64,000 bases of DNA from Minisyncoccia bacterium (GCA_039809245.1 JBDHUP010000001.1:100137-164136); one strand, 5' to 3'. Counted from the first letter of the stretch, positions 3,717-49,480 are shown. Notes: generated by a model from the letters alone, not told the origin. Made by a program: numbers and translations.

Positions 3717-3724
3717 GTATTATA

Positions 3725-12487: not shown

Positions 12488-13546
12488 TTATAACATTCGC
12501 TCTAGAGCTTTAGGATTAATTGAATATTGGTATGCGCTCTCCATACTTATTTCCCCTCTTTGTACAAGTTCAACAAGAGATCTATTCATATCAACCATTC
12601 CAGATTCTGAAGAAGTTTCTATAACATTATTTATCTCATGTGTACGCTTTTCTCGAATAAGATTTGATACTGCGTTATTATTTATCAAAAGTTCATATGC
12701 TGGAACACGTCCTCCAGCTATACGAGGAACAAGTCTTTGAGAAAAAACGGCAATTAAACTAGATGCGAGTTGTAAACGAATTTGATCTTGCTGAGATGCT
12801 GGGAATGAATCGATAATACGGTCTATTGTTTGTGATGCATTATTTGTATGAAGGGTTGAGAGAACTAAGTGTCCAGTTTCTGCGGCTGTTACAGCTGCAG
12901 AAATAGTAGCTGCGTCACGCATTTCACCTATAAAAATAACATTAACATCTTCACGAAAGACTGATTTTAAAGCCCCATTAAAACTCTCTGTATCAATACC
13001 AACTTCTCTTTGATCAATTATAGATTTATCAGGTTTATACACAAACTCTATAGGATCTTCAATAGTGACAATATGTGCTGCTCTTTCACTATTAATCATA
13101 TTTATCATAGTAGATAAAGTTGTTGATTTACCTTGACCAACTGGACCGACTACAAGAAAGAAACCTTGATTCTTCTGAGCAAAACTGGCAAGAATTGGAG
13201 GAAGGTTTAATTCTTCAAATGACTTTGCTTTCGGGATAAGACGAAGAGCAATACCAATAAGACCTCTCTGATAGAAAGCGTTGCCACGTAAATGTGTATC
13301 TTCTTCAAAAGAGTAAGAGAAATCGGCTTCTTTTTCTTCGGTAAATTTTTTAGTTTTTTCTGAGCCTAGAATTACAGTTAGTATTCCAATCATATCTTCA
13401 TTTGTTAAGACTTCTTGATTAGCTAGAAACAGAAGTTGCCCAGCAATACGCATAGCTGGCTTTCTACCTGCTCCTAAGTGTAGATCTGATCCATCTTCAC
13501 GCATAAGGCTGGTAAGTAATTCATTTAAAAATTTTTTATAATCCAT
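12488..13546 (-). CDS. pilT: Twitching-motility/retraction ATPase PilT
   Basis: 352 aa. Walker A GPVGQGKSTT, Asp box and His box of the PilT family. Confidence 0.85.
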   Translation of the reverse strand: MDYKKFLNELLTSLMREDGSDLHLGAGRKPAMRIAGQLLFLANQEVLTNEDMIGILTVILGSEKTKKFTEEKEADFSYSFEEDTHLRGNAFYQRGLIGIALRLIPKAKSFEELNLPPILASFAQKNQGFFLVVGPVGQGKSTTLSTMINMINSERAAHIVTIEDPIEFVYKPDKSIIDQREVGIDTESFNGALKSVFREDVNVIFIGEMRDAATISAAVTAAETGHLVLSTLHTNNASQTIDRIIDSFPASQQDQIRLQLASSLIAVFSQRLVPRIAGGRVPAYELLINNNAVSNLIREKRTHEINNVIETSSESGMVDMNRSLVELVQRGEISMESAYQYSINPKALERML

Positions 13547-13554
13547 AATAATTT

Positions 13555-13947
13555 TTATTTATTATTTACAGTACTAATAATACTATTAACTTTATCTATA
13601 ACTTCAGAAGGAGTGCTAGATGCTTTTACTATATAACCTGCTGCTCCTAATGATTCCCCTCTCGCTATATCTGATGGTTGACCTCGGTTAGATAAAACAA
13701 CGCGGATAGCTCCTGGTGCTAATTTTTCCTCATTCATTTTTTCCATAAGTTCAAATCCGTCCATAACAGGCATTACTATATCTAAGAGTATTATATCTGG
13801 ATTAAGACCTAAATGAAGTTTCTCTAAGGCTTGTTCAGAACCAAGTGAAGTAGTTACGTCAAAATTAGACTGATGGAATTTCAATGCATACATATCGAGA
13901 AGGAAGCTATCATCGTCAATAATCAAAATTTTTTTCTTTACTTCCAT
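13555..13947 (-). CDS. Stand-alone CheY-like response-regulator receiver domain (PilH-like), embedded in the pilus operon
   Basis: KILIIDDDSFLLDMY...DIILLDIVMPVMDGFEL... Confidence 0.8.
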   Translation of the reverse strand: MEVKKKILIIDDDSFLLDMYALKFHQSNFDVTTSLGSEQALEKLHLGLNPDIILLDIVMPVMDGFELMEKMNEEKLAPGAIRVVLSNRGQPSDIARGESLGAAGYIVKASSTPSEVIDKVNSIISTVNNK

Positions 13948-13984
13948 ATAAGGATATTATAATACAGTTACTATACTTTGCCTA

Positions 13985-15730
13985 CTAAAAGTTATAAACC
14001 TCCTGGAAAGGAATACTACCATTTAGACTCTTTACAATTGCATCTTCTCTTATAGAAAGCATTCCACGAGATCTAGCGAGTTTATAAATCTCTTGTTCTT
14101 GTGGTTTCTTAAGTATTATATTTTGCATTTCTTTATCAATTTCAAACATTTCAAACAAAGCAATACGACCTCTCATTCCAGATGGACATTCAGGTGAAGG
14201 AACAGCTTCGTACATTGACTTACCTATATTTAACTTACTCTTGTATTCTTCTGGTAAATCTTGGAATTGTTTTTCGAGCATTATCTTAGTAGCTTCATCT
14301 ATAGGAATTTCATGTTTTGAGGCTGGGAAAATACGGCGAGCTAGACGCTGAGCAACACATAATATAAGTGTAGGAGCGATAAGGTAAGGATCAATTCCCA
14401 TATCTATTAGACGTGGTATAGCTCCAACAGAAGAGTTAGTGTGGAGAGTAGAGAAAACTAAGTGACCAGTAAGAGCTGCTTGAATTGCAAGCTCGGCTGT
14501 TTCTTTATCTCTTATCTCTCCAACATATATTATATCTGGGTCCTGACGTAAAATTGACCTAAGTCCTGAAGCAAAAGTATAACCAATTTCAGGAGTAACT
14601 TGAGATTGATTTACTCCATCAATATGATATTCAACTGGATCTTCTAGAGAAACTATATTCTTTTCTTCATGATCAAGTTCATTTAGCATAGAATAAAGTG
14701 TTGTTGTCTTACCAGAACCAGTTGGACCTGTAAGGAGTATTAAGCCATAAGGTTTCGTGAGAGCGCTCCTAACCAGAGCTAAGTTTTCTTTAGACATATC
14801 TAGATTCCCTAGAGATTGAACTCCTTTATCAGAATCAAGGATACGCATAACAATTTTTTCTCCATAGTATGATGGCATTGTAGAAACACGAAAATCGATT
14901 TTTCGACCATCAATCTTGGCAGAGAATCCTCCATCTTGAGGTTTTCTTTTCTCATCAAGTCTTAACTTCGCTAATATTTTTATACGGGCAACTACTCCAT
15001 TATAGACATTTATAGGCAGTACAAGTGAAGTGTGTAAAACACCGTCAATACGAAATCTTACTCTGACTTTATCACCAACATTTTCAATATGTATATCAGA
15101 AGCAGAACCTTCTGTCGCATGTCTTAAAATAACTGCAACTATTTTAATGATTGGAGCATCTTCAACAATCCTTTCTTCTTCACCTGGTTTTAAAGAATCA
15201 GAAGTTTTTGTATTTTTCTCAATTGTAACACCCTCATCCCCCTCTCCTTTTGCTCCAGCTATTTCAGAATCAAGTTCTGAAAGAGCTTGGTCAACTTCGC
15301 TACCTAATCCTTCGTATGCTTGAATAAGTTGATTGTAAGTTGAAGTTTTAATCAAAAATAACTTGAACGGCTTATTCATTTTTGAAGTTATAAATGTAAG
15401 TGCATCTATAGCTTGAACGTTTTCTGGGTCTGTTATTCCTATTTCAAGAACACTATCAGAAACTCCTATAGGAACAAAGTGGTAAATCTTTGCCGATTCA
15501 GCTGGAATTAACTCTAGCGTTGATGGAACCACTCTCTTAGGATCAATATCTTTTATTGGAACATTGAAAATAGCTCCTTTTGCTTGAAGGATAGCATTCT
15601 CATCCAAATTAAAATCTAATAGGGCTTGGTCGACATTACCACTATATTTCTCATCAGCAATTTTTAAGACTTCAGGTATTTGTATTTCTTTTAGGATGCC
15701 TCTTTTTACTAATTCATCAAGAATTATCAT
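13985..15730 (-). CDS. pilB: Type IV pilus assembly ATPase PilB (GspE family)
   Basis: 581 aa. N-terminal GspII-like domain, Walker A LLTGPTGSGKTTTLYS, and a tetracysteine region. Confidence 0.9.
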   Translation of the reverse strand: MIILDELVKRGILKEIQIPEVLKIADEKYSGNVDQALLDFNLDENAILQAKGAIFNVPIKDIDPKRVVPSTLELIPAESAKIYHFVPIGVSDSVLEIGITDPENVQAIDALTFITSKMNKPFKLFLIKTSTYNQLIQAYEGLGSEVDQALSELDSEIAGAKGEGDEGVTIEKNTKTSDSLKPGEEERIVEDAPIIKIVAVILRHATEGSASDIHIENVGDKVRVRFRIDGVLHTSLVLPINVYNGVVARIKILAKLRLDEKRKPQDGGFSAKIDGRKIDFRVSTMPSYYGEKIVMRILDSDKGVQSLGNLDMSKENLALVRSALTKPYGLILLTGPTGSGKTTTLYSMLNELDHEEKNIVSLEDPVEYHIDGVNQSQVTPEIGYTFASGLRSILRQDPDIIYVGEIRDKETAELAIQAALTGHLVFSTLHTNSSVGAIPRLIDMGIDPYLIAPTLILCVAQRLARRIFPASKHEIPIDEATKIMLEKQFQDLPEEYKSKLNIGKSMYEAVPSPECPSGMRGRIALFEMFEIDKEMQNIILKKPQEQEIYKLARSRGMLSIREDAIVKSLNGSIPFQEVYNF

Positions 15731-15731
15731 A

Positions 15732-16412
15732 CTAATTTGTATTAAATGAAACTACATCACCATATATCGGTGCAGTTCCTACTTTTGCGACTGCCCTATA
15801 AAAGTAAGTAGTCTCTGGAGTTAATCCTTTAATACTTGTAACGAAAGTACCGACTAAAGATTGTTTTACTGGAGATGTGGATTGGCCTAGCTCTGGATCT
15901 GCTCCATATTCAAAGAAAACACTAGTAACTCCACTAAGATTATTTATTGTTCCATTTAAAATTGCACTCTTATCAGTAACCTGAGTTGGGTCATTTGTAA
16001 CAACAGGAGACAAAGCAGAGTTGCTAGAAGAAACTTCGGAAGAAAACGGAGCAAAAGGGTTAGGACGTCCAGGAACTGCAGCTTCTAAATTAACAGTATT
16101 ATCATTAAGCGATAAGAATTCTTGACTGTTAAATATAGTAGTATCAATTTTAATTTTTTTTAGAGATGTGAGTGTCGCAAGAAAAGCAGTATCTTCGGCA
16201 ATTTTATCTTCATTATTTATCCCTAAGACTGAAGAAGAACTACCATTTTGAGATACAAGAGAAGAATTTGCAGAGACAGGAGTATCTAAAGCTTGGACAT
16301 ACAAACTATTTGAAAAATAACTATAAACACCGCCTACTAATAGAGCGAGAGATGTTATTATTAAAAATTTGTTATATGATTTATTCATATTATTTAAGCC
16401 AGTAAGTTTCAA
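15732..16412 (-). CDS. Hypothetical secreted or membrane-anchored pilus-associated protein with a C-terminal beta-sandwich (FN3-like) domain
   Basis: N-terminal TM segment, a Ser-rich linker, and the C-terminal motif LNGTINNLSGVTSVFFEYGADPELGQ...TTYFYRAVAKVGT. Confidence 0.4.
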   Translation of the reverse strand: MKLTGLNNMNKSYNKFLIITSLALLVGGVYSYFSNSLYVQALDTPVSANSSLVSQNGSSSSVLGINNEDKIAEDTAFLATLTSLKKIKIDTTIFNSQEFLSLNDNTVNLEAAVPGRPNPFAPFSSEVSSSNSALSPVVTNDPTQVTDKSAILNGTINNLSGVTSVFFEYGADPELGQSTSPVKQSLVGTFVTSIKGLTPETTYFYRAVAKVGTAPIYGDVVSFNTN

Positions 16413-16980
16413 CTTTTAATGAAAATTCATAAATATTTGGGTCAACTCCATTTTGCTTAGAATCAGGAACTGTAAAACTAACAGATTTAATATCTACTAA
16501 TCGTAGATTATGCTCTACCTCAGATAAAAACTTCGCAAATGAATCATATGTTCCTTTTGTCGAAAACTCTACTGGGAAAACTCCATAAGGCAGAGCACTC
16601 GACGCTCCACTAGAGGCAACTACTGCACCATTATTATTCTTAGAAACTTCAGGGGCATTCTGCTGTGTTTGGAATTTAATATTTTCGACTGGCATGCCAT
16701 GAAGATTTGCTAATTGCTCTATCTCTAGTATAAACCTTATATTATTTACTGTGTTTGGTAAGAAATGAGCAAGGCGATCCTTATCAGCTTGGCTGATATT
16801 CTTATATGCATCAACTAATTTATCTCTAGTCTTTTGAAGATCAGTTGAATTATCTAATGCAACATTATAAACAAGAACATCAGCTTTTAATTGAGAAACT
16901 TCGGCTCGTATTGGATTTACAACTACAAAAAATAGTATGCCAGCGATTAGTATTAAAGATAGTGGAAATAGAAATCTCAT
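16390..16980 (-). CDS. pilO: PilO-like pilus assembly protein
   Basis: Single N-terminal TM segment plus a coiled-coil. Sits between the pilN-like gene and the ORF226/pilB genes. Confidence 0.55.
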   Translation of the reverse strand: MRFLFPLSLILIAGILFFVVVNPIRAEVSQLKADVLVYNVALDNSTDLQKTRDKLVDAYKNISQADKDRLAHFLPNTVNNIRFILEIEQLANLHGMPVENIKFQTQQNAPEVSKNNNGAVVASSGASSALPYGVFPVEFSTKGTYDSFAKFLSEVEHNLRLVDIKSVSFTVPDSKQNGVDPNIYEFSLKVETYWLK

Positions 16981-24154: not shown

Positions 24155-24240
24155 CGGAGGCGGTGAGATTCGAACTCACGGTCCTTTAAAGGGACGACGG
24201 TTTAGTAAACCGTTGATTTAAACCACTCATCCACGCCTCC
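24155..24240 (-). tRNA. Type II (long variable arm) tRNA-Ser-like gene with anticodon loop TTACTAA (anticodon ACU, A34)
   Basis: Reverse complement is GGAGGCGTGGATGAGTGGTTTAAATCAACGGTTTACTAAACCGTCGTCCCTTTAAAGGACCGTGAGTTCGAATCTCACCGCCTCCG. 3-bp D-stem, discriminator G, long variable hairpin. Confidence 0.7.
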
Positions 24241-24440: not shown

Positions 24441-25589
24441 ATGAACGACGATATATATAAAAAATCATTGGAACTCCATAGTAAACATCATGGTAAATTA
24501 GAAACGGTAAGTAAGATTAAATTAGACTCTAAGGAAGCTTTATCTCTTGCTTATAGTCCTGGAGTAGCGGAAGTTTCAAGAGAAATATTTCGTGATCCAT
24601 TTCTTGCTCGAGAATATACTCTTAAGAGAGACACAGTAGCTATAGTTAGTGACGGTTCAGCAATACTAGGTCTTGGTAATTTAGGAGCACTCGCTGCGAT
24701 TCCAGTGATGGAAGGTAAGGCTGCAATCTTTAAAGAGTTCGCGGGTTTAAATGCCTTCCCTATTTGTCTTGATACACAAGATACCGAAGAAATAATAAAA
24801 GCAGTAAAACAAATCGCTCCAGTTTTCGGAGGAATTAACTTAGAAGATATCTCTGGGCCAAAATGCTTCGAAATAGAATCAAGGTTAAGAAATGAATTAA
24901 CTATACCAGTAATGCACGATGATCAGTGGGGAGCAGCAACTGTTATACTTGCTGGAATTATTAATTCTCTAAAACTAAGCGGTAAATCAAAAGAAGGTGT
25001 TCGAGTAGTATTAAGTGGGATTGGAGCAGCAGGCGTAGCTACCGCTAGATTGCTTTTTATTTATGGAATAAAAAATATAATATTTTGTGACAGTAAAGGT
25101 ATTGTTTATCATGGACGCGAAGGTATAACAAAAGAGAAAAAAGAACTTCTTGATGGAAGTCTTATCGACGGTTGGCAAGGTTCTCTTCTAGATGCAATTA
25201 AGAACGCTGATATATTCATAGGATTATCAAAAGGTGGAACACTTACAAAAGATATGGTCTCATCTATGGCCGAGAAGCCTATAATATTTGCTCTTGCAAA
25301 TCCAACACCAGAAATTATGCCAGACGAAGCAAAGGAAGCAGGAGCTTACATTGTCGCCACTGGCCGCAGCGACTTTCCAAACCAAGTAAACAACTCATTA
25401 GTATTCCCTGGGGCATTTAAAGGGATGCTTGAGGCTAATATCCCTCAATTTAAAATAGATATGTTCTCTGGTATAGCAGAAGCTTTAGCGAACTATGTTA
25501 TAGACCTATCTACAGATAAAATACTGCCAACAATGTTCGATACTGGAGTTGTAGAAATAGTTTCTAAAACAATCCAAAAATATAAATAA
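24441..25589 (+). CDS. NAD(P)-dependent malic enzyme (short form)
   Basis: Signature regions AYSPGVAEVS..., VSDGSAILGLGNLG, and GIGAAGVA (NAD-binding). Confidence 0.85.
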   Translation: MNDDIYKKSLELHSKHHGKLETVSKIKLDSKEALSLAYSPGVAEVSREIFRDPFLAREYTLKRDTVAIVSDGSAILGLGNLGALAAIPVMEGKAAIFKEFAGLNAFPICLDTQDTEEIIKAVKQIAPVFGGINLEDISGPKCFEIESRLRNELTIPVMHDDQWGAATVILAGIINSLKLSGKSKEGVRVVLSGIGAAGVATARLLFIYGIKNIIFCDSKGIVYHGREGITKEKKELLDGSLIDGWQGSLLDAIKNADIFIGLSKGGTLTKDMVSSMAEKPIIFALANPTPEIMPDEAKEAGAYIVATGRSDFPNQVNNSLVFPGAFKGMLEANIPQFKIDMFSGIAEALANYVIDLSTDKILPTMFDTGVVEIVSKTIQKYK

Positions 25590-25630
25590 AACTTTTTGAG
25601 TAAAAGACTCAAATATGATAAGGTATCTAC

Positions 25631-25717
25631 GGAGACGTGTCAGAGTGGTCTAACGTACCTCCTTGCTAAGGAGGCAGGCTTTAATCGGCCTCGAGAGTTC
25701 GAATCTCTCCGTCTCCG
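25631..25717 (+). tRNA. tRNA-Ser (GCU), type II
   Basis: GGAGACGTGTCAGAGTGGTCTAACGTACCTCCTTGCTAAGGAGGCAGGCTTTAATCGGCCTCGAGAGTTCGAATCTCTCCGTCTCCG. Confidence 0.8.
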
Positions 25718-25727
25718 CACATAAAAA

Positions 25728-25759
25728 ATAAAAGCTTAGTGGGTAACTAAGCTTTTATT
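25728..25759. terminator. Bidirectional terminator hairpin between tRNA-Ser (+) and the arsR-like gene (-)
   Basis: ataaaagcttagt/actaagcttttat inverted repeat flanked by A/T runs. Confidence 0.6.
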
Positions 25760-26078
25760 TTTTATGTGCGAGTTTATGTAAAATGCGACAAGGTTCAACT
25801 ATACGAGGATCTATAATATTATAGTAACCATTTAAACCCTTACGATGAACAGTTACAAGTTTAGCATGGCGAAGCAAGGCTAAATGCTGAGAAACATTCG
25901 CTTTTGAAATACCTAGAGTTTTAACAAGGTCTTCAACTGGCATTTCTTGTTCACGTAATAGGTTTAATATTTCTAAACGTTTTGGATTAGAAAGAATCTT
26001 ATATATTTCAGCATTTCTCTGATATGCAATTCGTGGTAGAGGTTGTTTAATCTTCATAGTTTCTAAAGTATGCAACAA
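25755..26078 (-). CDS. ArsR/SmtB-family HTH transcriptional regulator
   Basis: ILSNPKRLEILNLL...VEDLVKTLGISKANVSQHLALLRHAKLV wHTH motif. Confidence 0.8.
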   Translation of the reverse strand: MLHTLETMKIKQPLPRIAYQRNAEIYKILSNPKRLEILNLLREQEMPVEDLVKTLGISKANVSQHLALLRHAKLVTVHRKGLNGYYNIIDPRIVEPCRILHKLAHKK

Positions 26079-26100
26079 TTAAACTTAAAAAGCAACCGAG

Positions 26101-28047
26101 CTATAACTTAATAAAATAAGATAAAATTATAACAATAAAAGCAAGTAAAGATGATAATGCAATAACATTATCTATATGGAAATTACTCGATATAGCAGCT
26201 GCTGGTAAATTCGCGAGCTCTGTGTTACCTATGCTTTTTTCTGGTTTATCTAAATTAACTGTATTTGATGATGCTAAATTTTTAGTATTTTTTGGTTTAT
26301 TTATTTTGGTTTCAATAATCGATTTATTTACTTCGACAGGAGTTTCAGTTAAATCGTTATTAACCTTTTCAATAGTTTCCACTTTGGGTTCTATAGCATT
26401 AGATGTTTCTTCTACTTTTTTAGATATTGTTGATTTTCCAACATGGTGAAAAACTAGGGGCCATGGCTTCTCAAGTGACCCTAAGATAGCATAGCTGGTA
26501 GCCCAAATTCTATTTGAGATTGATTCGTTTTCATCAAGTAAGCCGCTGTCTTGCATTTGGTTATTAGCTAAGTAATCAATTGTATTATTATTTACTGATA
26601 AACCTAAAGCACCTACGGACTGCAATACCCAACTAGTCGAGTAGACACTCCCCCAACCTCCAGTAACATTCTCTGTTGTCTTAATATATGAGCTAGCTAA
26701 ATCTAAAGATTGTGAAACATAAGTCAGAGATCGGAATTGAGATAATGCTTCAATGCTAGCAGCTGTCATATCAACACTTTCTTCCCAAGAACCATCTGCT
26801 TTTTGTTTTGAAATAATATATTGTAAATCTTTTAAAATTATAAGGTCATCAATTGTATAACCAGAGCCCTCAAGAACAATAATCGCAAATATATCATCAT
26901 TAATGAGCGAGTCATCACCAAATTGTGCACCATCAAATGCATTTACTATCGGTGAAATAAAATCCTTATCATTAAATGAATATGGATTTTCGTTTAAAGA
27001 AAGAAGTGCCATAGCATGACGTTCGTTATCTGTAATATTTTTACTAATACCATAATTTGATTTAAAATAACTTATAATTTTTTCTTTTACTTCGGTTTGG
27101 TTTGTAACCGAACCCAAAGCAATACCAGCCCAGTCAGTATACATTTCATTATTTTCAAAAGATCCATTATTATCTTGGTGTGAAATAATAAAATTAACTG
27201 CTCCTTGTAAATCAAAAATTTTTTTATTTATAGATCCACCTCCTCCCCCACCTTGGTTTGATATTTTCTCAACTATAAGCTCCTCAGTCGGGAAATAAAA
27301 ATCTTCTTTGACCCCGACATTATAAGTACCTGGTTCAATTTTTGTAAAAGTAGCTTGACCACTTTGATCTACCTTCTCTGTTTTTATTTCGATTGGATTC
27401 CAAGGATCATCGGGGTTATTTTGGGTTATACCTATTGTCACATCGTCCCTATCGAGCCATTGATTATTTTGATAATCATATTTATATGAAGTGACTGTTA
27501 AACTATCTTCGGTTGTTACTTTTTTTGAACTAAGAGAGATTTTATATTGTTGACCAAAATAAACATAGATATTTTCACCCCCAGATAATATACTTTTATC
27601 CATACCTACACTTCCGTACGCATTATCGACTGCAAATTGCCAATTGTCACATTGCTCAACCGACTTAGAAATATTGTTTATACATTTTATATACAGAGAA
27701 TCAAAAGATGTATAGTATTCTAAGTCTGAAATACTAAAATTTTGACTCTCTTCTGCTACTTTATTTATAACCGCAAGAATGCTTCTATTATCGACACTGT
27801 GTAAAACACCATCTTTATCGGTCAAATCTATATTTTTCTCTTCATCTAGAGTGACATCTCCAGAAAAAATAATATCTTCCCCATCTCTAATCGATAATTT
27901 TACAGTCTGTAAAATCACAGGTTCCTCTTCTGTTAAAGATATTTCAGGTGCGATAGTATCAATGGGTAGAACTTCGTCTTCAGCATGAATAACAAAAAAC
28001 GGTATGACTATAAGAAGAATGTATGTGAGGAGTTTAATTGGTTTCAT
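26101..28047 (-). CDS. Large secreted protein with prenyltransferase/squalene-cyclase-like alpha-alpha toroid repeats and a C-terminal membrane anchor
   Basis: N-terminal signal peptide. Repeats of Q..DG(S/G)W type (QDNNGSFE, QKADGSWEE, NVTGGWGS), a GGGGGGS linker, and a C-terminal hydrophobic segment. Confidence 0.45.
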   Translation of the reverse strand: MKPIKLLTYILLIVIPFFVIHAEDEVLPIDTIAPEISLTEEEPVILQTVKLSIRDGEDIIFSGDVTLDEEKNIDLTDKDGVLHSVDNRSILAVINKVAEESQNFSISDLEYYTSFDSLYIKCINNISKSVEQCDNWQFAVDNAYGSVGMDKSILSGGENIYVYFGQQYKISLSSKKVTTEDSLTVTSYKYDYQNNQWLDRDDVTIGITQNNPDDPWNPIEIKTEKVDQSGQATFTKIEPGTYNVGVKEDFYFPTEELIVEKISNQGGGGGGSINKKIFDLQGAVNFIISHQDNNGSFENNEMYTDWAGIALGSVTNQTEVKEKIISYFKSNYGISKNITDNERHAMALLSLNENPYSFNDKDFISPIVNAFDGAQFGDDSLINDDIFAIIVLEGSGYTIDDLIILKDLQYIISKQKADGSWEESVDMTAASIEALSQFRSLTYVSQSLDLASSYIKTTENVTGGWGSVYSTSWVLQSVGALGLSVNNNTIDYLANNQMQDSGLLDENESISNRIWATSYAILGSLEKPWPLVFHHVGKSTISKKVEETSNAIEPKVETIEKVNNDLTETPVEVNKSIIETKINKPKNTKNLASSNTVNLDKPEKSIGNTELANLPAAAISSNFHIDNVIALSSLLAFIVIILSYFIKL

Positions 28048-28050
28048 ATA

Positions 28051-28527
28051 TTATTTTAATTTCCATTCTATTAAATCGTTATTTTTAGGAACGTAATTTG
28101 AAATACCAGTTGAAGTTTCTTTTTGATTTACATAATACATTAGATATTTCCCGTCTTTTTGATGTAAATCACCTATATCTGTTACAAAAAAACCTAATCC
28201 TTGATAATCTTTACCATTAAAATTTATGTCGCCATTTTTTTTAGCTAACTTTAATAGATCGTATAAAGTTTCTCCCTCTATTAATGGTATTCTCATTTCT
28301 ACACCATTAATTATCAAAAATATTGAACTATTCCCTTTGCTTGTATTAACTGCTATATCTTTACTTAAATTATTATCTAGAGAACTTGTCTTTACGGGTT
28401 GCTGTGTATTTTGAAATTCATCTTCTCTTGTACTTTCTTCACTAATAGATGCTATAAATACAAGTGCTGTTATAAAAATAAAGACGCCAAGACCTATTAT
28501 GTATTTTTTATACAACTTTTTTTTCAT
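28051..28527 (-). CDS. DUF4430-like membrane-anchored protein (similar to the beta-domain of transcobalamin/intrinsic factor)
   Basis: N-terminal TM anchor. C-terminus reads GDINFNGKDYQGLGFFVTDIGDL...KYLMYYVNQKETSTGISNYVPKNNDLIEWK, the characteristic DUF4430 ending. Confidence 0.5.
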   Translation of the reverse strand: MKKKLYKKYIIGLGVFIFITALVFIASISEESTREDEFQNTQQPVKTSSLDNNLSKDIAVNTSKGNSSIFLIINGVEMRIPLIEGETLYDLLKLAKKNGDINFNGKDYQGLGFFVTDIGDLHQKDGKYLMYYVNQKETSTGISNYVPKNNDLIEWKLK

Positions 28528-28539
28528 ATATTTTATTTA

Positions 28540-29109
28540 TTAAATATAATTTGGCTTACTTTCAGAATAACCTTCTTGATAGTTTGCAAAGCGCGCTAGA
28601 GCGTACAGAGCGCTTGATAATCTGTTTAAATAAATAATACTTTCATTATTTATTTTGCGTTCGTTTTTATCTTTTAGAGACACTAGCTGTCTCTCAGTCC
28701 TTCTTGCGATAGTTCTACAGATATCAAGGTAAGCTGAACTTTCTCCGCCACCTGTGATAACAAATGATTTAATCGGTGGTAAGACTGTATCTACTTCATA
28801 AATAACTTTCTCAAGATATAAAATATGTTCTTTTTTTATATGGATGTCAGATCCAGCAAGTTCTGCTTGAATTGAAAATATGTTTTGTTGGAAAATTTCA
28901 ATTATGTCTTGATATTTTATATTTTTTAGATCAACACTTAGGTAATTTTTATATCTTGATGATAATGCTTTCGCATAACCCATAGAAGAATTAAGTTCAT
29001 CTAATGTGCCAAGTACCTCAAAAACAAAAGAACCTTTAGATAATCTAGTCCCTTCCGGGCAATTAAAGAGCTTGGTTGTTCCATTGTCTCCTTTTCTTGT
29101 ATACAACAT
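28540..29109 (-). CDS. PduO-type ATP:cob(I)alamin adenosyltransferase
   Basis: N-terminal YTRKGDNGTTKL motif and a helical-bundle C-terminus (RRTERQLV). Confidence 0.75.
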   Translation of the reverse strand: MLYTRKGDNGTTKLFNCPEGTRLSKGSFVFEVLGTLDELNSSMGYAKALSSRYKNYLSVDLKNIKYQDIIEIFQQNIFSIQAELAGSDIHIKKEHILYLEKVIYEVDTVLPPIKSFVITGGGESSAYLDICRTIARRTERQLVSLKDKNERKINNESIIYLNRLSSALYALARFANYQEGYSESKPNYI

Positions 29110-29114
29110 AAATT

Positions 29115-31397
29115 TTATATTTCACACAACCCCCCTACACATGCAAGTTCACGTTTTGCTTCAGTCTCATCTTCTTTTTCATAAGTGACAATTTTTGAGA
29201 AATCAAGGTGACCGAGACGTTTAATCATTTCCTCATACTTTTCTTTATTTATCGTTTCATATGGGGCAAGCTGATAGACATGATTTGACCTAGGTAAGAA
29301 TGATAACCCTCCAACTAGATCCCAATTTTCATATACCCAGTTCGCAACTTTTAACCATTCTTCATCACCGACTGAAATCGTAACTGAAGGATTATGCTCT
29401 GTATAATGTTCTTTAACTATTTTCCAATGTTCAAGCTGAGTAATAGCGTTAACATCATCTTTACAGATAGCACCTTCTGGAGCTTTCACAGGGAATTCAA
29501 ATACAAATGTTGTCGCGTTTTCAATTGTTTGACCAACTTCGGGAAAATATGGAACCCCTTGATCTTTTAACATTTTAAAAAGTGCATCAGTCGCTGAAAT
29601 TCTTATGCGACGAATATAATACGGAGCATGTCTTGGGTGCATACCAGAAGCACAATCAACAGTCTGGGAAACTGTACCTGATGGTTTTACGCAAGTTATA
29701 CATGTTGAAGTCCCAATACCAAAGCGCTTTGAGTACTTTTTATTAGTCTCTATGGCAACAGCTTTTATTTTCTCTAATACTTTCGGATCGCGAACTGTTT
29801 TACAATCCCACTGTCCAGTTATAGATACACCCAGTAACCTTTCTTGTTCGCAATTCTTTTTCCATTCTTTTGAGAGATAAGGAAAATAGGTCAGAGTTGA
29901 TTGGTAAGTACCTATAATAGTAGCAATGCGAGCTTTTTTTAGTAAAGTCTCCTCAGTGTCATCGGCACGAGCAACAACTTCAGATAAATTACAAAATTGT
30001 TTTGATTGTAAAATTATTTCTCCACAAGGATTTGTCCCCCATGATGGATGTTCATTTTCTTTCCATTGATCAAGTCTTCTTTTTGGCAGAGTTCCAGCAA
30101 GACCACCTCGATTAAATATTCCACGCTCACCACTTCCACTTTTCACTAAGGCAATCCATTCATCCATAAACTCTGTAGTTGATGGTTTTGATGTATAAAC
30201 AGCAGAGTTATTTGCGAGCATTCTCTGACCCTCTGTTACATAGAATTGTCCTTTCTTTGAATCACGAATAGCTTCATCGTCTAAATCAGACAACGATATC
30301 ATAGCACTTCTTCGCACTCCTCCAGCAACTACACATTCACCGATTTTACATATAATATCGTGTGCATCTAGGTTTGAAAGATGTCTTCCAGCTTTTCGTA
30401 TAATGCGTTCCCTCGTAAATGTGAGTAAAGATTCGAGCGGTGCTGGACCTGAACTTTTACCACCCATAGTTTTTAGCCTTGATCCGGCTGGACGAATTTT
30501 AGAATAATCGAAAGTTACATCTTCTCCTTCAAACCAAGTTTTCATCCCAAATGCAAACGCATCAGCCCAACCTTCTTTACTATCCTCAATAATGTAAACT
30601 GGTAACATTTTGCCTGTCTGTTTTAGAATTTGAGGAAGCGCTTGTATGTTCTCGCTCTCAACAGACCAGCCGACACCAGTCCCACACATAGATATATACA
30701 TAACCTCTGCAAAATCTTGGAAGGTTCTAGGGGCGATGAATGAACAGTTATAAGCACACACATTTGTCCTTCTAGCAGCCTTACCAGCAAATTGTAATAA
30801 TCGCATAGAAGGCATTGATTCTTGGTTTAAGATTGCTTCTCTAATGTCTTTGTATTCAACTTCAGTAAGCTTAGTGCCAAGATTATCACGCATGAAATTC
30901 ATATATCGATCGATTGTCTCTATCCATGTCTCCCTGCGTCCTTCTTCAATAATCCATTTAGCATATGTCCTATAATATACAAATTCAGCAAGTGGATTTC
31001 TAAAATATTTTTTACTTTCAGTAACCAATTCTTTTACTTTTTCAGGCACAAAGCCAATTTTTTCTCTCACTATTGAACGTTCTTTCCTGTATAGAATATA
31101 TGCTTTTGCTGTTTTTAGAAAATCCGCAATAATAAGTTCATTTTCAACTATATCTTGAATTGTCTCTACATTCGGAACAAAATCCTTTATGTTTTTTTCT
31201 TTTTTGTATTCAATTAATGCATCTAAAACTTTATACATCAGTTTTTCTGCGGTAATTTCGTCACCTTCTTTTACAGACTGCATAGCACGAAAAATAGCAC
31301 GAGTTATCCTCTTTCCATAAAACGGAACAATTGTACCATCACGTTTCTGAATTTTCTTAAGTACTGAATATTTTTTTGTATCTAATTTATTTTTCAT
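29115..31397 (-). CDS. nrdJ: Adenosylcobalamin-dependent (class II) ribonucleotide reductase
   Basis: 760 aa. NPCGEIIL active-site motif and a C-terminal Cys pair. It is long and has no radical-generating partner subunit nearby. Confidence 0.8.
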   Translation of the reverse strand: MKNKLDTKKYSVLKKIQKRDGTIVPFYGKRITRAIFRAMQSVKEGDEITAEKLMYKVLDALIEYKKEKNIKDFVPNVETIQDIVENELIIADFLKTAKAYILYRKERSIVREKIGFVPEKVKELVTESKKYFRNPLAEFVYYRTYAKWIIEEGRRETWIETIDRYMNFMRDNLGTKLTEVEYKDIREAILNQESMPSMRLLQFAGKAARRTNVCAYNCSFIAPRTFQDFAEVMYISMCGTGVGWSVESENIQALPQILKQTGKMLPVYIIEDSKEGWADAFAFGMKTWFEGEDVTFDYSKIRPAGSRLKTMGGKSSGPAPLESLLTFTRERIIRKAGRHLSNLDAHDIICKIGECVVAGGVRRSAMISLSDLDDEAIRDSKKGQFYVTEGQRMLANNSAVYTSKPSTTEFMDEWIALVKSGSGERGIFNRGGLAGTLPKRRLDQWKENEHPSWGTNPCGEIILQSKQFCNLSEVVARADDTEETLLKKARIATIIGTYQSTLTYFPYLSKEWKKNCEQERLLGVSITGQWDCKTVRDPKVLEKIKAVAIETNKKYSKRFGIGTSTCITCVKPSGTVSQTVDCASGMHPRHAPYYIRRIRISATDALFKMLKDQGVPYFPEVGQTIENATTFVFEFPVKAPEGAICKDDVNAITQLEHWKIVKEHYTEHNPSVTISVGDEEWLKVANWVYENWDLVGGLSFLPRSNHVYQLAPYETINKEKYEEMIKRLGHLDFSKIVTYEKEDETEAKRELACVGGLCEI

Positions 31398-31939
31398 GCT
31401 TGTTTTGGATTAAAAAATCTAATAATTGATTCATTTTCAAATCTTTTATTTTTAATAACAAAATTATAAATTAAAGGAGAGAGAATAAATGCAAATGATA
31501 CATTTCCAATTAAATGGAGAATCGTAAATGGAATCTGCCCTGTAACAGCTTCTATGAATGGTTGGTGAAAAAATAATGGACCAATTGATAGACCTGTTGC
31601 TATGTCATATGCAATTGTTCCGAAAATGGCAAATTTAGCATAATTCCATGAGTTGTTTTTTTTATTTTTAAAATAAATTGCCGCCCAAAAACCTAATAAA
31701 CCGTAAGCACTCGCAGTAATGAATGTCCACACTCCTATGCCTGAAGTAAAAAGATCAAAGAGAATAATTCCTATAAATGAGAATAAGAAGCCAGCTAGTT
31801 TTCCGTATGCTTTTGAGAAAGGCATCTGTGTTGCTAGAATCGGCTCAATGTTTGGCGGACGGAAAGGTATAATCCTAATTAGAAAACATGCAACAAAACC
31901 AATAAGATATTTAAACCAGTTTTTTTTATATGTTTCCAT
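31394..31939 (-). CDS. ECF-transporter S-component-like membrane protein, possibly cobalamin-specific (CbrT-like). The function assignment is inferred from context.
   Basis: 181 aa with 5-6 TM helices. Its stop overlaps the nrdJ start (ATGA). Confidence 0.35.
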   Translation of the reverse strand: METYKKNWFKYLIGFVACFLIRIIPFRPPNIEPILATQMPFSKAYGKLAGFLFSFIGIILFDLFTSGIGVWTFITASAYGLLGFWAAIYFKNKKNNSWNYAKFAIFGTIAYDIATGLSIGPLFFHQPFIEAVTGQIPFTILHLIGNVSFAFILSPLIYNFVIKNKRFENESIIRFFNPKQA

Positions 31940-32124
31940 AGTATTTATTTAATCCACTTGGCAACAATTCAAGTGAAGTGTATAATATTGATAGTTGCAT
32001 AGTTTCGAAACTACTAAATCAGTATACTCCAGTTTTGAAAACTTCTGCAACAGTGGATAACTTAATTAAAAGGATGGGGGGTCGACAAATTATTATAATT
32101 TATAAATTAATTAATATTTTATAT

Positions 32125-32487
32125 ATGAACAACAACAATCGCGCACTTTGGGCGTTAAAAATAGGAGTTGCAGGTGAATTTATAGGCCATGGGGCCTTAG
32201 CAATTGGAGGAAAGGCTGACTGGGTTGGATGGGTACAAAAGCTTTCTGGTTTAAATCAAACAACATCATTAAATATTATTATTGCAATAGGTATAGTAGA
32301 TGTATTACTTGCTCTTATCGTTTTACTCCGTCCAGTTAAACCATTGTTATTATGGATGGCATTTTGGGGATTTTTCACTGCTATTTTACGCCCAATAGTC
32401 GGGCAATCAATATGGGATTTCATAGAGAGATTTGCAAACTGGGGAGCACCACTTGCTTTATACTTCCTAGTAAGTAAAAACGATTAG
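32125..32487 (+). CDS. Small polytopic membrane protein. The likely start is the internal Met of ORF 31978..32487.
   Basis: Reads MNNNNRALWALKIGVAGEFIGHGALAIGG... with 3-4 TM helices. The upstream part of the ORF is low-complexity. Confidence 0.35.
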   Translation: MNNNNRALWALKIGVAGEFIGHGALAIGGKADWVGWVQKLSGLNQTTSLNIIIAIGIVDVLLALIVLLRPVKPLLLWMAFWGFFTAILRPIVGQSIWDFIERFANWGAPLALYFLVSKND

Positions 32488-32531
32488 TTAAAGAAATAAC
32501 TTCTTCGCATAAATTCTGATATACTATATTT

Positions 32532-33272
32532 ATGGAAGAAGTAGAAAATCTGAAAGCTGAAAATGAGAAGTTGAAACAGATGAATGCAGTTAAATCTGAC
32601 CTTATTTCAATTTCGGCACACCAGCTTCGTACTTCACTGTCTGCTCTAAAGTGGATTCTAAAAATGTTTATAGATGAGGATATTGGTAAACTCACAAACG
32701 AGCAGTCAAGTTTCGTTCAGAAAGCTTATAATAGTAATGAGAGGATGATCGCTCTTGTAAACAATCTACTTTTGCTAAATCACACAGAAGACACTGCTAT
32801 CCCTTTTAGTTTCAAGAAGGTTGATATTTTGAACTTAGTTGATCAAACTATGTTTGAATTCTCTGGAGAAACAAATAAAAAAAATATCGAGTTAATATTC
32901 CTAAAACCAGAATCTCCCCTGCCTTTAGTAAATTGTGACGAAGATATGATTAGAGTTGTTCTTCAAAATTTAATTGAAAATGCTATAAAATATAGTAACT
33001 CGAATGACAAAGTTTTTGTATCGCTAAAACAAGTTGATGATAATGTACAAATATCAGTCCATGATACTGGTATAGGTATCAGTGAAGATGATAAAAATAA
33101 TATCTTCAAAAAGTTCTTCCGAGCTTCAAATGCTAAAGAAAAAGACAGTGTAGGGTCAGGGTTAGGCCTGTTTACAACCCACAATATAGTGGAAAGGCAT
33201 AAAGGTAAGATATGGTTTGAGAATACAAATGGAGGTGGGACAACCTTCTTCGTCACATTGCCTATAATATAA
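32532..33272 (+). CDS. Cytoplasmic sensor histidine kinase (HisKA + HATPase_c), no TM segments
   Basis: H-box SAHQLRTSLSAL. N-box LIENAIKYS. G-boxes DTGIGI and GSGLGL. Confidence 0.85.
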   Translation: MEEVENLKAENEKLKQMNAVKSDLISISAHQLRTSLSALKWILKMFIDEDIGKLTNEQSSFVQKAYNSNERMIALVNNLLLLNHTEDTAIPFSFKKVDILNLVDQTMFEFSGETNKKNIELIFLKPESPLPLVNCDEDMIRVVLQNLIENAIKYSNSNDKVFVSLKQVDDNVQISVHDTGIGISEDDKNNIFKKFFRASNAKEKDSVGSGLGLFTTHNIVERHKGKIWFENTNGGGTTFFVTLPII

Positions 33273-39146: not shown

Positions 39147-39180
39147 ATATAAAAACTCCGCTTGCGCAGAGTTTTTATAT
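39147..39180 (-). terminator. Rho-independent terminator of ssrA
   Basis: aaaaactccgc...gcagagttttt inverted repeat directly downstream of the tmRNA 3' end. Confidence 0.55.
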
Positions 39181-39182
39181 TG

Positions 39183-39578
39183 TGGAGATGGGCGGAGTTG
39201 AACCGCCATGCAAAAGAAGTTCATAGGTGAATCTACATGTTTATCATGTTCGATTGGGTTTAAACGGGAAAGCTAGAGAACAGGCAATATACTTTCGCGC
39301 CGAGCTCTTCATTGTCGGAATTCTATGCAAGCGGTATAAAATTCGTAACCCGATTAATTATGCCTCCCCTATTTATCGGATGTCGATAAGAGAGACACCT
39401 GACCGGCTTAAGTTAAGCGAGTACAGGAGCAAAGTTTAAACCAAATGCGTTAGCAAATGGTGACTTTACTGAAGCGACTTTGTTTGCACTTAGTCTTTTC
39501 CAAGAAGTTTAGAAAGATTCCTGGGTACTTTACATGCACATCTATGAGTGACGTCCTTTGTCGAAGCCCGTCATCCCC
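39183..39578 (-). ncRNA. ssrA: tmRNA (SsrA), standard one-piece form. The tag reading frame at 39413..39487 encodes ANKVASVKSPFANAFGLNFAPVLA-stop.
   Basis: 5' end is GGGGATGACGGGCTTCGAC. 3' end is GGCGGTTCAACTCCGCCCATCTCCA, with acceptor GGGGATG/CATCTCC including the G3:U70 pair. Resume context GACUAAGU GCA AAC matches the E. coli UAGUC GCA AAC context. smpB is adjacent. Confidence 0.85.
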
Positions 39579-46738: not shown

Positions 46739-49480
46739 TTATCCTTGCTGTCTATACTTATCCATAATCTCGGCTTCGACTTCTTCGCGCTCACGGCCAA
46801 ACTTCAAATATGAAAGCTCTTTAATCTTCTCGACTATCTCTGGTGTCCCTTGTGGTGGTGGAAATGTGGCAATATTGAATGGCTTTGTCGGCTGGCCATT
46901 TATGAGCATCGATATATATGCATTACGATTCTCAATTTTCATAATATCAGCTGCAGAGAATACAGGCTTGAATTTGTTTTCGAGGAATTGCGCATCTTCG
47001 CCACCGACTCGGAACACAGCCATAGAACCAACGTTGCCGAAAACAGCATCTCGAATATTCTCTTCAAGTTGAGCTATATACTGGTGAGCAACAGTTAGAG
47101 ATAAGCGGTACTTACGAGCTTCAGATAGAATAGATTCTATGGAGTCAGTAGTCACGTTTTGGAACTCGTCTATATACAAGAAGAAGTCTTCCATTTTTTT
47201 ACCATACATATCTACACGAGAAAGCGCGGCCATTTGTATCTTGTTTACAATTAAAAGACCTATTAGATTCGCATTTATATCGCCAAGGCGTCCTTTCGAA
47301 AGGTTCACAAGCAAAATCTTTTTATTATCCATGATATCTCGGAAGTTGAACACTGATTTCTCTTGAAGGACCACAGGGCGCATGATGTCATTCGAAATAA
47401 AATTATCGAATTTTGAAGTGATATATGGCACGAAGTTGGCAATAGATTGATCACCTGTTGTTTGCTCTGCACTCCTCCAGAACTGAGTTATTATTGGGTT
47501 CTTACAGTGTGAAAGCTTCATATCACGGAATTCTTTATCCGCAAGAACGCGACCAATCTCAAGTAAAGTTGCTCCAGATTCAGGATGCTCCATCACAAGG
47601 AAAGCTGAGTTTTTGAAATACTGTTCGAACATTGGACCTCCAGATGTCTTCATATCAAAAAGCTTGTTAAAGATATTCATTAATTCGTTAACTACAAAAG
47701 TCTTCTGCTCTGGATACTTTGGATCATACTCAAGCATATTGAGCCCCATAGGTCGCGCTGTGTAAGCCGGATCGAAATAAATAACGTCGTCAATTCGCTC
47801 TTTTGGAATGTAGCTAAGAATATCTTGGATATCTGTACCATGCGGATCAATATAACAAACTCCGTGACCGGCTTTGATATCCTGAGCGATCATATTCTTC
47901 ATAATTGTAGTCTTTCCTGTACCTGTTTGACCTATAACATACAAATGGCGCATTCGATCTTCATCAGCAAAGTGTACTTCGGTATCTTTCCCTCTATAAC
48001 TATTTATACCGAGCTTAATACCTTCTGATCCCATCTCTATTGGAGCAGGGGCTATGCCAGCACGAGCTTGTTTGAGCTGAGGAGAGACGATGCCATATGG
48101 GAAGTGAAAGATTGTAGCAAGCTCTTTGAGATTTAGTGGCATAGAATACTTCTGTGAAAACATACGATATGAGAAATCGTGAACCAGTGCATTCAAGTCA
48201 GAACCTTGTGGGTGATTAAAATTAAAACTATTACGGTGTGATTCAGTGAATTGATTAAAAGAAGATTCAATATCAGCTAGAATCTGATCCGCGCGAGTTT
48301 TGCTTTCCGCCGAAGCAACGATACGAATATTGGCAGCCATTATAGTACTCTTCATTTTCTCTGTAATGCTTTCTATCGCTTTGTCGTTGATCTTTTTCTC
48401 TTCTTTTTCTTTTGATTCACCGAAAATCATGCCTTTTGCTAACTTACCGAACTCTTTACCGAATTGACGAACAACACTAGAAGCTGTTTTAACTGACATT
48501 CCCTCTTTGACATCACCTAATATAGTGTGGAATTTTTTTATTATTTCATCATCCTCTGGACATATTGTGAATTGTATTGAGGCTCCTTCACCAGACTTCT
48601 TAAGTTTAGTGAAAACATTAAGAATTATATTTAGTGGATCGTGGTCTATGGCGTCATATAATTTGATAGGATAGACCTCGTAAGAATCAAGGGTGGCATA
48701 AGAAGCTGAGATGGCTCCCCCTTCGGAGAAAATATTATAATCATCAGGCACTTCGACAATCTTGGCATGAGAATGGACTCCGAGTAACTGTTTCTCAAAT
48801 AGATCAGCTTTATGAGTAGGGACAGCTGTGTAGAATATAAAATGGTCAGTATCTTCTGCTAGAGCAATCTCGAGAGTAAAGTGATTACGGTTATAATTCT
48901 CACGACCTTCACCGACTGAATGCATACCGGCATAGAACTGCTCCATAGCTGAAAGTAACTCCTTTAAACTTTTCTTATTCTTCTCATCATCTTCTGGGTC
49001 AGGTAGAGTGATCTCGAAAAGCTTCATATCTAGAGATTTAAACAGTGGTGTTCCCTCCTTGAGTCCTGGAATCTTATGTGTACTATATAAATACTGGACT
49101 AAGAAACGATGGAAATCATCATCTAGATGGGGATTATTCATCTTACTTATTACAGAAAGAGCGCTAGATATACCTTTACTTAGAAGGACTCCTAGCATTT
49201 CCTCCATTTTATTATCATGTGACTCTGGGTGAAGACGAAGAACAAGCTTTTCTTCTTCTCCTTCTTTCATTACCACATTCTTATGCATTACTTCGTGTGG
49301 TTCAAGCTTTTTGTACTCTTGGATTACATCGTGAGCGAGTGCTTCCTTCGAATATTCTTGACCTTGTTCGCTTAGAGATCTTTCTTTCTCGGCGAGATGC
49401 GCACGTAAAAATTCAAGCTCCTCTTGTGGAGTTTTGAACTTTGGAGCATTGTTTAAATTAAAACCTTCCATTGTATTCAT
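46739..49480 (-). CDS. Large P-loop NTPase of the VirD4/TraG/HerA-FtsK-like superfamily, preceded by a roughly 470-aa N-terminal region of unknown function
   Basis: Walker A VIGQTGTGKTT. Walker B FFLYIDEF. Arginine-finger-like YRLSLTVAHQ. 913 aa. Confidence 0.45.
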   Translation of the reverse strand: MNTMEGFNLNNAPKFKTPQEELEFLRAHLAEKERSLSEQGQEYSKEALAHDVIQEYKKLEPHEVMHKNVVMKEGEEEKLVLRLHPESHDNKMEEMLGVLLSKGISSALSVISKMNNPHLDDDFHRFLVQYLYSTHKIPGLKEGTPLFKSLDMKLFEITLPDPEDDEKNKKSLKELLSAMEQFYAGMHSVGEGRENYNRNHFTLEIALAEDTDHFIFYTAVPTHKADLFEKQLLGVHSHAKIVEVPDDYNIFSEGGAISASYATLDSYEVYPIKLYDAIDHDPLNIILNVFTKLKKSGEGASIQFTICPEDDEIIKKFHTILGDVKEGMSVKTASSVVRQFGKEFGKLAKGMIFGESKEKEEKKINDKAIESITEKMKSTIMAANIRIVASAESKTRADQILADIESSFNQFTESHRNSFNFNHPQGSDLNALVHDFSYRMFSQKYSMPLNLKELATIFHFPYGIVSPQLKQARAGIAPAPIEMGSEGIKLGINSYRGKDTEVHFADEDRMRHLYVIGQTGTGKTTIMKNMIAQDIKAGHGVCYIDPHGTDIQDILSYIPKERIDDVIYFDPAYTARPMGLNMLEYDPKYPEQKTFVVNELMNIFNKLFDMKTSGGPMFEQYFKNSAFLVMEHPESGATLLEIGRVLADKEFRDMKLSHCKNPIITQFWRSAEQTTGDQSIANFVPYITSKFDNFISNDIMRPVVLQEKSVFNFRDIMDNKKILLVNLSKGRLGDINANLIGLLIVNKIQMAALSRVDMYGKKMEDFFLYIDEFQNVTTDSIESILSEARKYRLSLTVAHQYIAQLEENIRDAVFGNVGSMAVFRVGGEDAQFLENKFKPVFSAADIMKIENRNAYISMLINGQPTKPFNIATFPPPQGTPEIVEKIKELSYLKFGREREEVEAEIMDKYRQQG

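Follow-up and report, generated by a model that had tools for sequence, protein, structure and literature searches.

How might a member of the Patescibacteria supply a cobalamin-dependent ribonucleotide reductase (RNR) with its cofactor when no genes for corrin synthesis are in view? The question is raised by a 64,000-nt stretch of DNA from a Minisyncoccia bacterium (GCA_039809245.1, JBDHUP010000001.1:100137-164136), here called the window, in which six tightly packed open reading frames (ORFs) occupy positions 25755-31939 of the minus strand. Patescibacteria (candidate phyla radiation, CPR) are abundant and for the most part uncultured; their genomes are minimal, and it is poorly defined which of their needs must be supplied by partners. 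An earlier note, made from the sequence alone, had read the six ORFs as consecutive genes for an energy-coupling factor (ECF) S-component-like membrane protein, a class II RNR (NrdJ), a PduO-type cob(I)alamin adenosyltransferase, a DUF4430-like membrane-anchored protein, a large surface protein with toroid repeats, and an ArsR regulator, and had proposed that they capture external corrinoid, adenosylate it and feed it to the only B12-dependent enzyme in view. All six ORFs lie at the coordinates given there, and the profile matches of each gene agree with the families named. The logic of capture, adenosylation and use is well supported by the relationship of the S-component-like protein (hereafter S) to CbrT, by the gene set of Lactobacillales, by the association with two RNR types, and by riboswitches in relatives. 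We consider it probable that the locus is a six-gene cobalamin-salvage operon dedicated to DNA-precursor synthesis, and that it represents the Paceibacteria version of the Lactobacillales nrdJ-cbrS-cbrT-pduO cluster.

The genes are closely spaced. The stop codon of the S gene overlaps the start of nrdJ, as had been noticed before, by 4 nt, and the two genes are translationally coupled; the remaining intergenic gaps are, in order, 5, 12, 3 and ~22 nt, and a terminator scan found no terminator-like site inside the cluster. A sigma-70 promoter scan gave 32 promoter-like matches against 30.4 expected in shuffled sequence, which is the background level. Pfam was used to scan the ~40 further ORFs of the window, and among these neither cob/cbi genes nor a second RNR, a further B12-dependent enzyme or BtuCDF were found. 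Within the 64 kb, then, NrdJ is the sole B12-dependent enzyme and corrin biosynthesis is not represented, in agreement with the earlier note.

NrdJ (760 aa, 29115-31397) consists of an ATP-cone (residues 15-108, 66.2 bits), an RNR_Alpha domain, an RNR-II insertion domain (PF21995, 32.3 bits against a cutoff of 27) and a barrel. Its family is clearly best described by TIGR02505, the ribonucleoside triphosphate reductase (RTPR) model (294.6 bits, E=1.4e-87), and its best solved relative is the RTPR of Lactobacillus leichmannii (PDB 1L1L, E=1.8e-50). The NPCGE motif is found at residues 456-460 in a TNPCGE context, with C458 as the thiyl-radical cysteine. C218, C458 and C469 of NrdJ align with C119, C408 and C419 of 1L1L, N456 and E460 with N406 and E410, and the C-terminal pair C753/C758 with C731/C736. 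Since 1L1L is the best relative and the functional residues are conserved, NrdJ can be classified from its sequence as a monomeric enzyme of the RTPR type which carries an extra N-terminal ATP-cone. The earlier assignment as a class II RNR with an NPCGE motif therefore stands, with the type now specified as monomeric RTPR and with the ATP-cone added. Adenosylcobalamin (AdoCbl) would be the radical generator of this enzyme, judging from its homology and from the adjacent pduO gene. The fusion of an ATP-cone to a monomeric RTPR-type RNR is conserved in relatives, whereas the Lactobacillus enzymes are without ATP-cone; no study of allosteric on/off regulation was found for this type of RNR.

The first gene of the cluster (31394-31939) encodes S, which has 181 aa and is a small multi-pass membrane protein with hydrophobic segments distributed along its whole length. 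It matches PF07155, a riboflavin-type S-component model, with 34.2 bits (cutoff 26.7), and its relatives also match PF12822 and PF20221, as CbrT homologues do. When the S-family profile was compared with PDB, the single match was CbrT of Lactobacillus delbrueckii (6FNP_A, E=0.024), aligned over residues 16-156 of S and 20-165 of CbrT, and hhalign of the S family against Lactobacillus helveticus CbrT gave a probability of 87.5% (E=3.6e-6). The S family and CbrT have conserved Cys, Arg, PNxxP and HxxGN positions in common. Family profiles succeeded here, and also for the 648-aa protein described below, in contrast to PDB searches with the single sequences of S, the DUF4430 protein and the 648-aa protein, which returned nothing meaningful. 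More than 600 close homologues of S occur in Patescibacteria with identities of 63-77%, so that the family is unusually well conserved. S is thus predicted to be the cobalamin-binding and translocating subunit of a CbrT-type transporter.

The products of the three genes that follow nrdJ would act on corrinoid before and after its import. PduO (28540-29109) is a full-length ATP:cob(I)alamin adenosyltransferase according to both PF01923 (149.5 bits, cutoff 24) and TIGR00636 (149.5 bits, cutoff 108.45). The 158-aa protein encoded at 28051-28527 matches PF14478 (DUF4430, an SLBB-type domain) with 50.4 bits against a cutoff of 23.8 and has an N-terminal transmembrane (TM) segment at residues 5-33, so that its description as a DUF4430-like membrane-anchored protein holds; it is predicted to be an extracytoplasmic corrinoid binder beside the transporter. 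The 648-aa protein (26101-28047) was recognized from sub-threshold matches to SQHop_cyclase_C, TED, DUF4430 (residues 110-165) and SpaA (residues 185-244), from its family, and from an AlphaFold2 model of the full-length protein (mean pLDDT 81). In the model, an N-terminal hydrophobic helix is followed by two beta domains (residues 47-165 and 168-260). A Gly linker then leads to an alpha/alpha toroid of 12 helices (280-532), which a disordered stalk of 85 residues connects to a C-terminal TM helix. We read this series as signal/TM, SLBB (DUF4430-like), Ig-like domain, linker, toroid, stalk and C-terminal TM anchor. A large surface protein with toroid repeats had been recognized before; to this description must be added its own DUF4430-like and Ig-like domains, which precede the toroid. 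Among 40 members of its family, 23 match PF01122, the eukaryotic cobalamin-binding protein family (best 2e-8), and 15 match DUF4430. We predict that the 648-aa protein serves as a transcobalamin-like corrinoid trap. Two other functions of the toroid were considered and rejected: the D374-V-D-D motif of terpene (squalene-hopene) cyclases aligns with S-V-D-M (residues 424-427, family profile), so that DxDD is lost, reading of the sequence revealed no CGEQ motif of a thioester (TED) domain, and the protein has an extracytoplasmic location.

The association of the genes was followed in other genomes. S-family patterns were scanned over one genome per GTDB species, giving 146 relatives, and the best 80 loci, with flanks of +/-10 kb (1.2 Mb in total), were examined after their ORFs had been classified by phmmer against the window proteins. 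The close homologues are labelled as Patescibacteria, namely Paceibacterota, Nomurabacteria or Parcubacteria. S is directly followed by an RTPR-type NrdJ in 62 of the 77 evaluable loci, and 44 of these 62 have the identical 4-nt overlap. PduO is present in 50/80 loci; 32 have an ArsR protein as the 3'-terminal member of the cluster, 28 a BIG-like protein and 26 a DUF4430 protein. The core is S-NrdJ-PduO(-ArsR), and the pair of capture genes is an optional insert, as illustrated by a relative (L002-L004) whose cluster is without it. The order can also vary (RNR-PduO-S in L061), several loci carry a solitary S gene, and in L075 S abuts a class II RNR of the dimeric type (PF08471 and TSCPD). The presence of S beside two class II RNR types links it to the use of B12 rather than to one enzyme lineage. 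Sole dependence on NrdJ, the condition under which the earlier note held the island to be essential, is however not a property of the clade, since L039 contains a complete class I RNR (13421-16498, minus strand) ~2 kb from its S-NrdJ-PduO cluster, made up of a 576-aa NrdA-like protein without ATP-cone and a 438-aa NrdB with an N-terminal ATP-cone. The latter arrangement is that of the PDB 5OLK-type NrdB, and L039 provides a case of two RNR classes adjacent in a reduced genome.

Riboswitches in the relatives provide evidence of a different kind. Between pduO and the DUF4430 gene, an AdoCbl-II aptamer (RF01689) was found in L031 (5235-5322; 38.4 bits against 36.5) and in L054 (43.1 bits against 36.5), and an AdoCbl aptamer (RF01482) in L050 (55.7 bits against 50). 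A homologous element occurs in 25 loci; 37 of its positions are invariant, and 16 of 30 predicted pairs show compensatory changes. Thirty loci have the DUF4430/surface-protein capture genes, and in 24 of them the element lies directly upstream of the pair. Furthermore, in L084, where the S gene is solitary, it is preceded by a near-threshold RF00174 match (31.1 bits against 31.5). This linkage provides independent support for a response to cobalamin status by the DUF4430/toroid pair and, probably, by S. In the relatives, the compact AdoCbl-II-type element is followed by an invariant TCCCGAGCAGGAA box, which probably contains the ribosome-binding site, and several copies of the element, for example that of L025, do not reach the Rfam gathering threshold. 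L084, a Parcubacteria genome, also has a group I intron (RF00028, 69 bits; 3618-3891, plus strand), which precedes the riboswitch and S by a few hundred nt.

The window itself belongs to the minority without a riboswitch, and its pduO-DUF4430 gap is only 12 nt. The scan for a cobalamin riboswitch upstream of 31939 that the earlier note had suggested was negative: Rfam at gathering threshold gave none over the whole window, clan CL00101 (RF00174/RF01482/RF01689) gave no match in 25000-33000 at E<=10, and a profile built from the riboswitches of 22 relatives gave no match in the window. What the window has instead is a regulator of its own. The last gene of the operon (25755-26078, with an alternative ATG at 26057) encodes the ArsR regulator named in the earlier note, an ArsR/SmtB-family winged-helix protein (NF033788, 83.9 bits against 55; PF01022, HTH_5, 53.1 bits), in which no alpha3 CxC metal site was seen by reading the sequence. 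At 32000-32013, 61-74 nt upstream of the S start, there is a perfect 14-nt palindrome, TAGTTTCGAAACTA, as a candidate ArsR operator; the range delimited in the earlier note ends short of it, and the palindrome is located just outside. There is one copy of its core, AGTT[TG]CG[ACT]AAC, in the window, and almost all copies in the 1.2 Mb of related loci are at the position upstream of S. The core is found there in 26 of 33 loci with ArsR and in 6 of 48 without (Fisher p=1.6e-9), and four of these six are truncated contigs. Moreover, ArsR is present in all 6 capture loci without a riboswitch, as compared to 7 of the 24 with one (p=0.003). The ArsR-family protein probably autoregulates the operon by binding at TAGTTTCGAAACTA, and ArsR and riboswitch control would be alternative solutions. 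A second, similar palindrome, AGTTTTCAAAACT, seen in the window only and located ~30 nt further upstream (32031-32043), may be a second operator half-site pair.

Several observations weigh against a cobalamin-salvage operon, and some of them would suit other explanations. The NrdJ score stays below the trusted cutoff of TIGR02505 (340.05 bits), which makes the enzyme a divergent member, and the similarity between S and CbrT is weak at the values given above. In addition, S overlaps the start of a PurN-like formyltransferase gene, not nrdJ, in L014 (10543-11166), and that of a glycerophosphodiester phosphodiesterase (GDPD) gene in L085 (819-1520), and these neighbours are not explained by a role in B12 use. 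Together with the solitary S genes and the riboflavin-type Pfam model that S matches, they could mean that S imports another substrate for DNA-precursor supply, such as a (deoxy)nucleoside, cobalt or another vitamin, and that its link to nrdJ is one of nucleotide metabolism. We give this very little chance, because the single solved relative of S is the cobalamin-specific CbrT, S is found together with PduO as well as with two unrelated types of class II RNR, one solitary S gene is preceded by a near-threshold cobalamin riboswitch, and the gene set is identical to that of the validated Lactobacillus B12 cluster. The window's 648-aa protein, for its part, is below the Pfam cutoff for DUF4430 (20.2 bits against 23.8) and has no PF01122 match, and the Foldseek matches of its whole model are alpha-2-macroglobulin and complement proteins. 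On these grounds it might be a generic surface protein that shares the operon without binding B12, for instance an adhesin, a protein that binds polysaccharides, or one resembling alpha-2-macroglobulin/TED proteins or terpene cyclases. This is very unlikely given the AdoCbl riboswitch directly upstream of the DUF4430/large-protein pair in 24 of 30 loci, the PF01122 and DUF4430 matches of its homologues, and the sequence features, described above, by which cyclase and thioester functions were rejected.

A further difficulty concerns the energy for transport. Genes for EcfA, EcfA' or EcfT were found neither in the window nor in the 1.2 Mb of related loci; no window ORF has both an ATP-binding cassette (ABC) Walker A and signature motif, and the related loci contain 13 ABC ATPases, which look MacB-, FtsE-, ABC-F- or SufC-like and include no tandem EcfA pair. 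Either an ECF module is encoded elsewhere or the mechanism is different. BtuM and solitary BioY are thought to work without an ECF module, and the same B12-salvage operon might contain a CbrT-like protein that acts as a solitary transporter without ECF ATPase, for which the SLBB/toroid proteins supply an affinity gradient. Apart from the missing ECF genes, the unusual conservation of the S family is in favour of this, as is a difference in TM1, where the residues before the conserved Cys are ALLTA or AMLTA in Lactobacillus CbrTs and G14-F-x-(A/V/T)-C18 in the Patescibacteria family. The AxxxA motif of CbrT, which we take to be the motif for docking on EcfT, is thus replaced by GFxA/V. However, group II ECF modules are normally encoded apart from their S genes, and the search covered the window and the flanks of the loci, in which only ~2 modules would be expected by chance for 80 loci; their absence is therefore not significant. 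Furthermore, solitary CbrT without the ECF module was inactive in E. coli, where it gave no B12-dependent growth (Santos 2018), a result which speaks against a solitary transporter and, so long as no ECF module is seen, also against import by S as we propose it. On balance we consider transport by S alone to be unlikely.

Taking the cobalamin-salvage operon as the best explanation, its products could act in the following way. The C-terminally anchored 648-aa protein would trap external corrinoid between SLBB domain and toroid in the manner of transcobalamin and intrinsic factor, and would hand it to the small membrane-anchored DUF4430 protein, if the order of the two is as we suppose. The CbrT-like S-component would then move the corrinoid across the membrane, PduO would adenosylate the cob(I)alamin, and the ATP-cone-bearing RTPR-type NrdJ would use the AdoCbl for the reduction of ribonucleotides. 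The operon's own ArsR-family repressor, acting at 32000-32013 in response to a signal, would probably control all six genes, and in most relatives the AdoCbl riboswitch would control the two capture genes instead. A bolder combination, in which an ECF-free CbrT-like protein is fed by a two-protein transcobalamin-like relay, ArsR at TAGTTTCGAAACTA replaces the riboswitch, and growth is gated by corrinoid in genomes that have NrdJ only, seems to us improbable as a whole.

The conservation of the cluster in most of the 80 S-bearing genomes, along with that of S itself, suggests that external corrinoid is a specific nutritional dependency tied to the supply of deoxyribonucleoside triphosphates (dNTPs). 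If NrdJ is the only RNR of a genome, DNA synthesis, and hence growth, would be gated by corrinoid from hosts or neighbours, and transport by S on its own, if it occurs, would set the system truly apart in mechanism from ECF-CbrT. The cluster may provide handles for cultivation, by supplementation with B12 or cobinamide, for learning how ECF-type S-components work in reduced genomes, and for comparing two interchangeable regulators, a riboswitch and an ArsR-type repressor. In the literature searched, we found no papers linking Patescibacteria, Parcubacteria or CPR to class II RNR, cobalamin uptake or ECF transporters.

Elsewhere in the window, Pfam recognized genes for type IV pili, an operon of ribosomal proteins, gatCA, ligA, ftsH, recG, ndk, adk, phosphoribosyltransferase genes and a VirD4-like ATPase gene, and the G+C content is even along the window (30-40%), so that there is no sign of a foreign island. 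A divergent gene upstream of S (31978-32487, plus strand) encodes a small hydrophobic protein without a Pfam match, 169 aa as listed, whose likelier start is the MNNNN... codon near 32126; homologues occupy the same position in ~11 loci (among them L008, L017, L031, L050 and L087). Just downstream of the cluster, two long-arm tRNA genes (24155-24240, minus strand; 25631-25717, plus strand) lie on either side of a malic-enzyme gene, the tRNA gene at 25631-25717 being convergent with the ArsR gene at a distance of 38 nt, and a tmRNA gene is located at 39180-39578 (minus strand). Also on the minus strand, 46739-49480 encodes a 913-aa protein with weak matches to VirD4/TraG-type coupling proteins and HerA-like ATPases, standing alone among housekeeping genes. 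Adjoining the ribosomal/adk region, 50400-51014 and 51134-52066 (both minus strand) encode paralogous proteins with CxxC...CxxC zinc-ribbon-like N-termini and a MKVPVPHVCPECRFK-type motif but no Pfam match, and a similar protein is encoded near the S gene in L013 (8015-9742).

How does this operon compare with systems that are already known? Like the RTPR of PDB 1L1L, NrdJ has the features of a monomeric class II enzyme, with a dimer-mimicking insertion domain, the catalytic Cys, Asn and Glu residues, a redox Cys pair and a C-terminal CxxxxC tail. It differs in its ATP-cone (15-108), which has a KRDG signature and thus implies on-off control by dATP and ATP, a control that RTPR is without. As for transport, BtuM is reportedly a solitary S-component-like B12 transporter and decyanase of Gram-negative bacteria (Rempel 2018). 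S resembles it in being a small S-component-like membrane protein for which B12 import without an ECF module in the genome has been proposed, but the S profile revealed no sequence relationship between the two, BtuM being absent from its PDB matches at E<=10. Cys18 of the S family aligns with Cys22 in TM1 of CbrT, and its position presumably differs from that of the Co-ligating Cys of BtuM. Surface capture of corrinoid also has a counterpart in Bacteroides, where the lipoproteins BtuG and BtuH bind corrinoids with high affinity, feed a membrane transporter and are under cobalamin-riboswitch control. BtuG is a beta-propeller, and the transporter is the TonB-dependent BtuB. The role would be the same as that predicted here, but by description the folds are unrelated and the transporter is different.

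Closer to the two surface proteins of the window are bacterial secreted proteins in which a transcobalamin-type SLBB domain and an alpha/alpha toroid are combined in either order, often with Ig domains; a second SLBB paralogue is encoded in the same operon, the proteins occur in organisms without B12 synthesis, and B12 scavenging was predicted for them (Burroughs, Balaji, Iyer, Aravind 2007). Judged by its domains, the pair of 158-aa and 648-aa proteins fits this description exactly. The order from SLBB to toroid in the 648-aa protein is the reverse of that in transcobalamin, intrinsic factor and haptocorrin and corresponds to the 'Bacillus-type' order of Burroughs 2007. In contrast to the proteins described there, its anchor is a C-terminal TM helix after a disordered stalk and not a sortase motif, and its gene is linked in the operon to a CbrT-like S-component and not to CbiO/CbiQ; ligand binding is a prediction.

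The closest counterpart of the operon as a whole is the nrdJ-cbrS-cbrT-pduO cluster of Lactobacillales, which contains CbrT and which was predicted by Rodionov 2009, as cited in Santos 2018; ECF-CbrT imports both cobalamin and cobinamide (Santos et al. 2018 eLife, PDB 6FNP). The L. helveticus locus (L088) encodes an RTPR-type NrdJ of 744 aa without ATP-cone, a DUF4430 protein of 136 aa (69.7 bits), CbrT of 174 aa and PduO of 186 aa, the DUF4430 protein being in the cbrS position between nrdJ and cbrT. Both clusters thus combine an RTPR-type RNR, a DUF4430 protein, a CbrT-type S-component and PduO, that is, uptake, adenosylation and use in one operon, and neither encodes an ECF module within the cluster. 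The window differs in its order, S-nrdJ-pduO-DUF4430, with S translationally coupled to nrdJ, in the ATP-cone of its NrdJ, and in the addition of the SLBB/Ig/toroid protein and of ArsR with its palindrome. The proteins are also distant: NrdJ is 27% identical to L. helveticus RTPR, S is detectable by profile only, and BLASTP gave no significant similarity between the DUF4430 proteins of the window and L. helveticus, a distance that rules out a recent transfer. There is no novelty in the layout itself, since predictions of its parts and logic date from 2007-2009 and their validation in Lactobacillus from 2018. The new elements are the wide and strong conservation of the cluster in Paceibacteria, an RTPR-type enzyme with an ATP-cone, an S gene translationally coupled to that of the reductase, control by ArsR and a palindrome in apparent replacement of the riboswitch, and the question of how the S-component is energised in these genomes.

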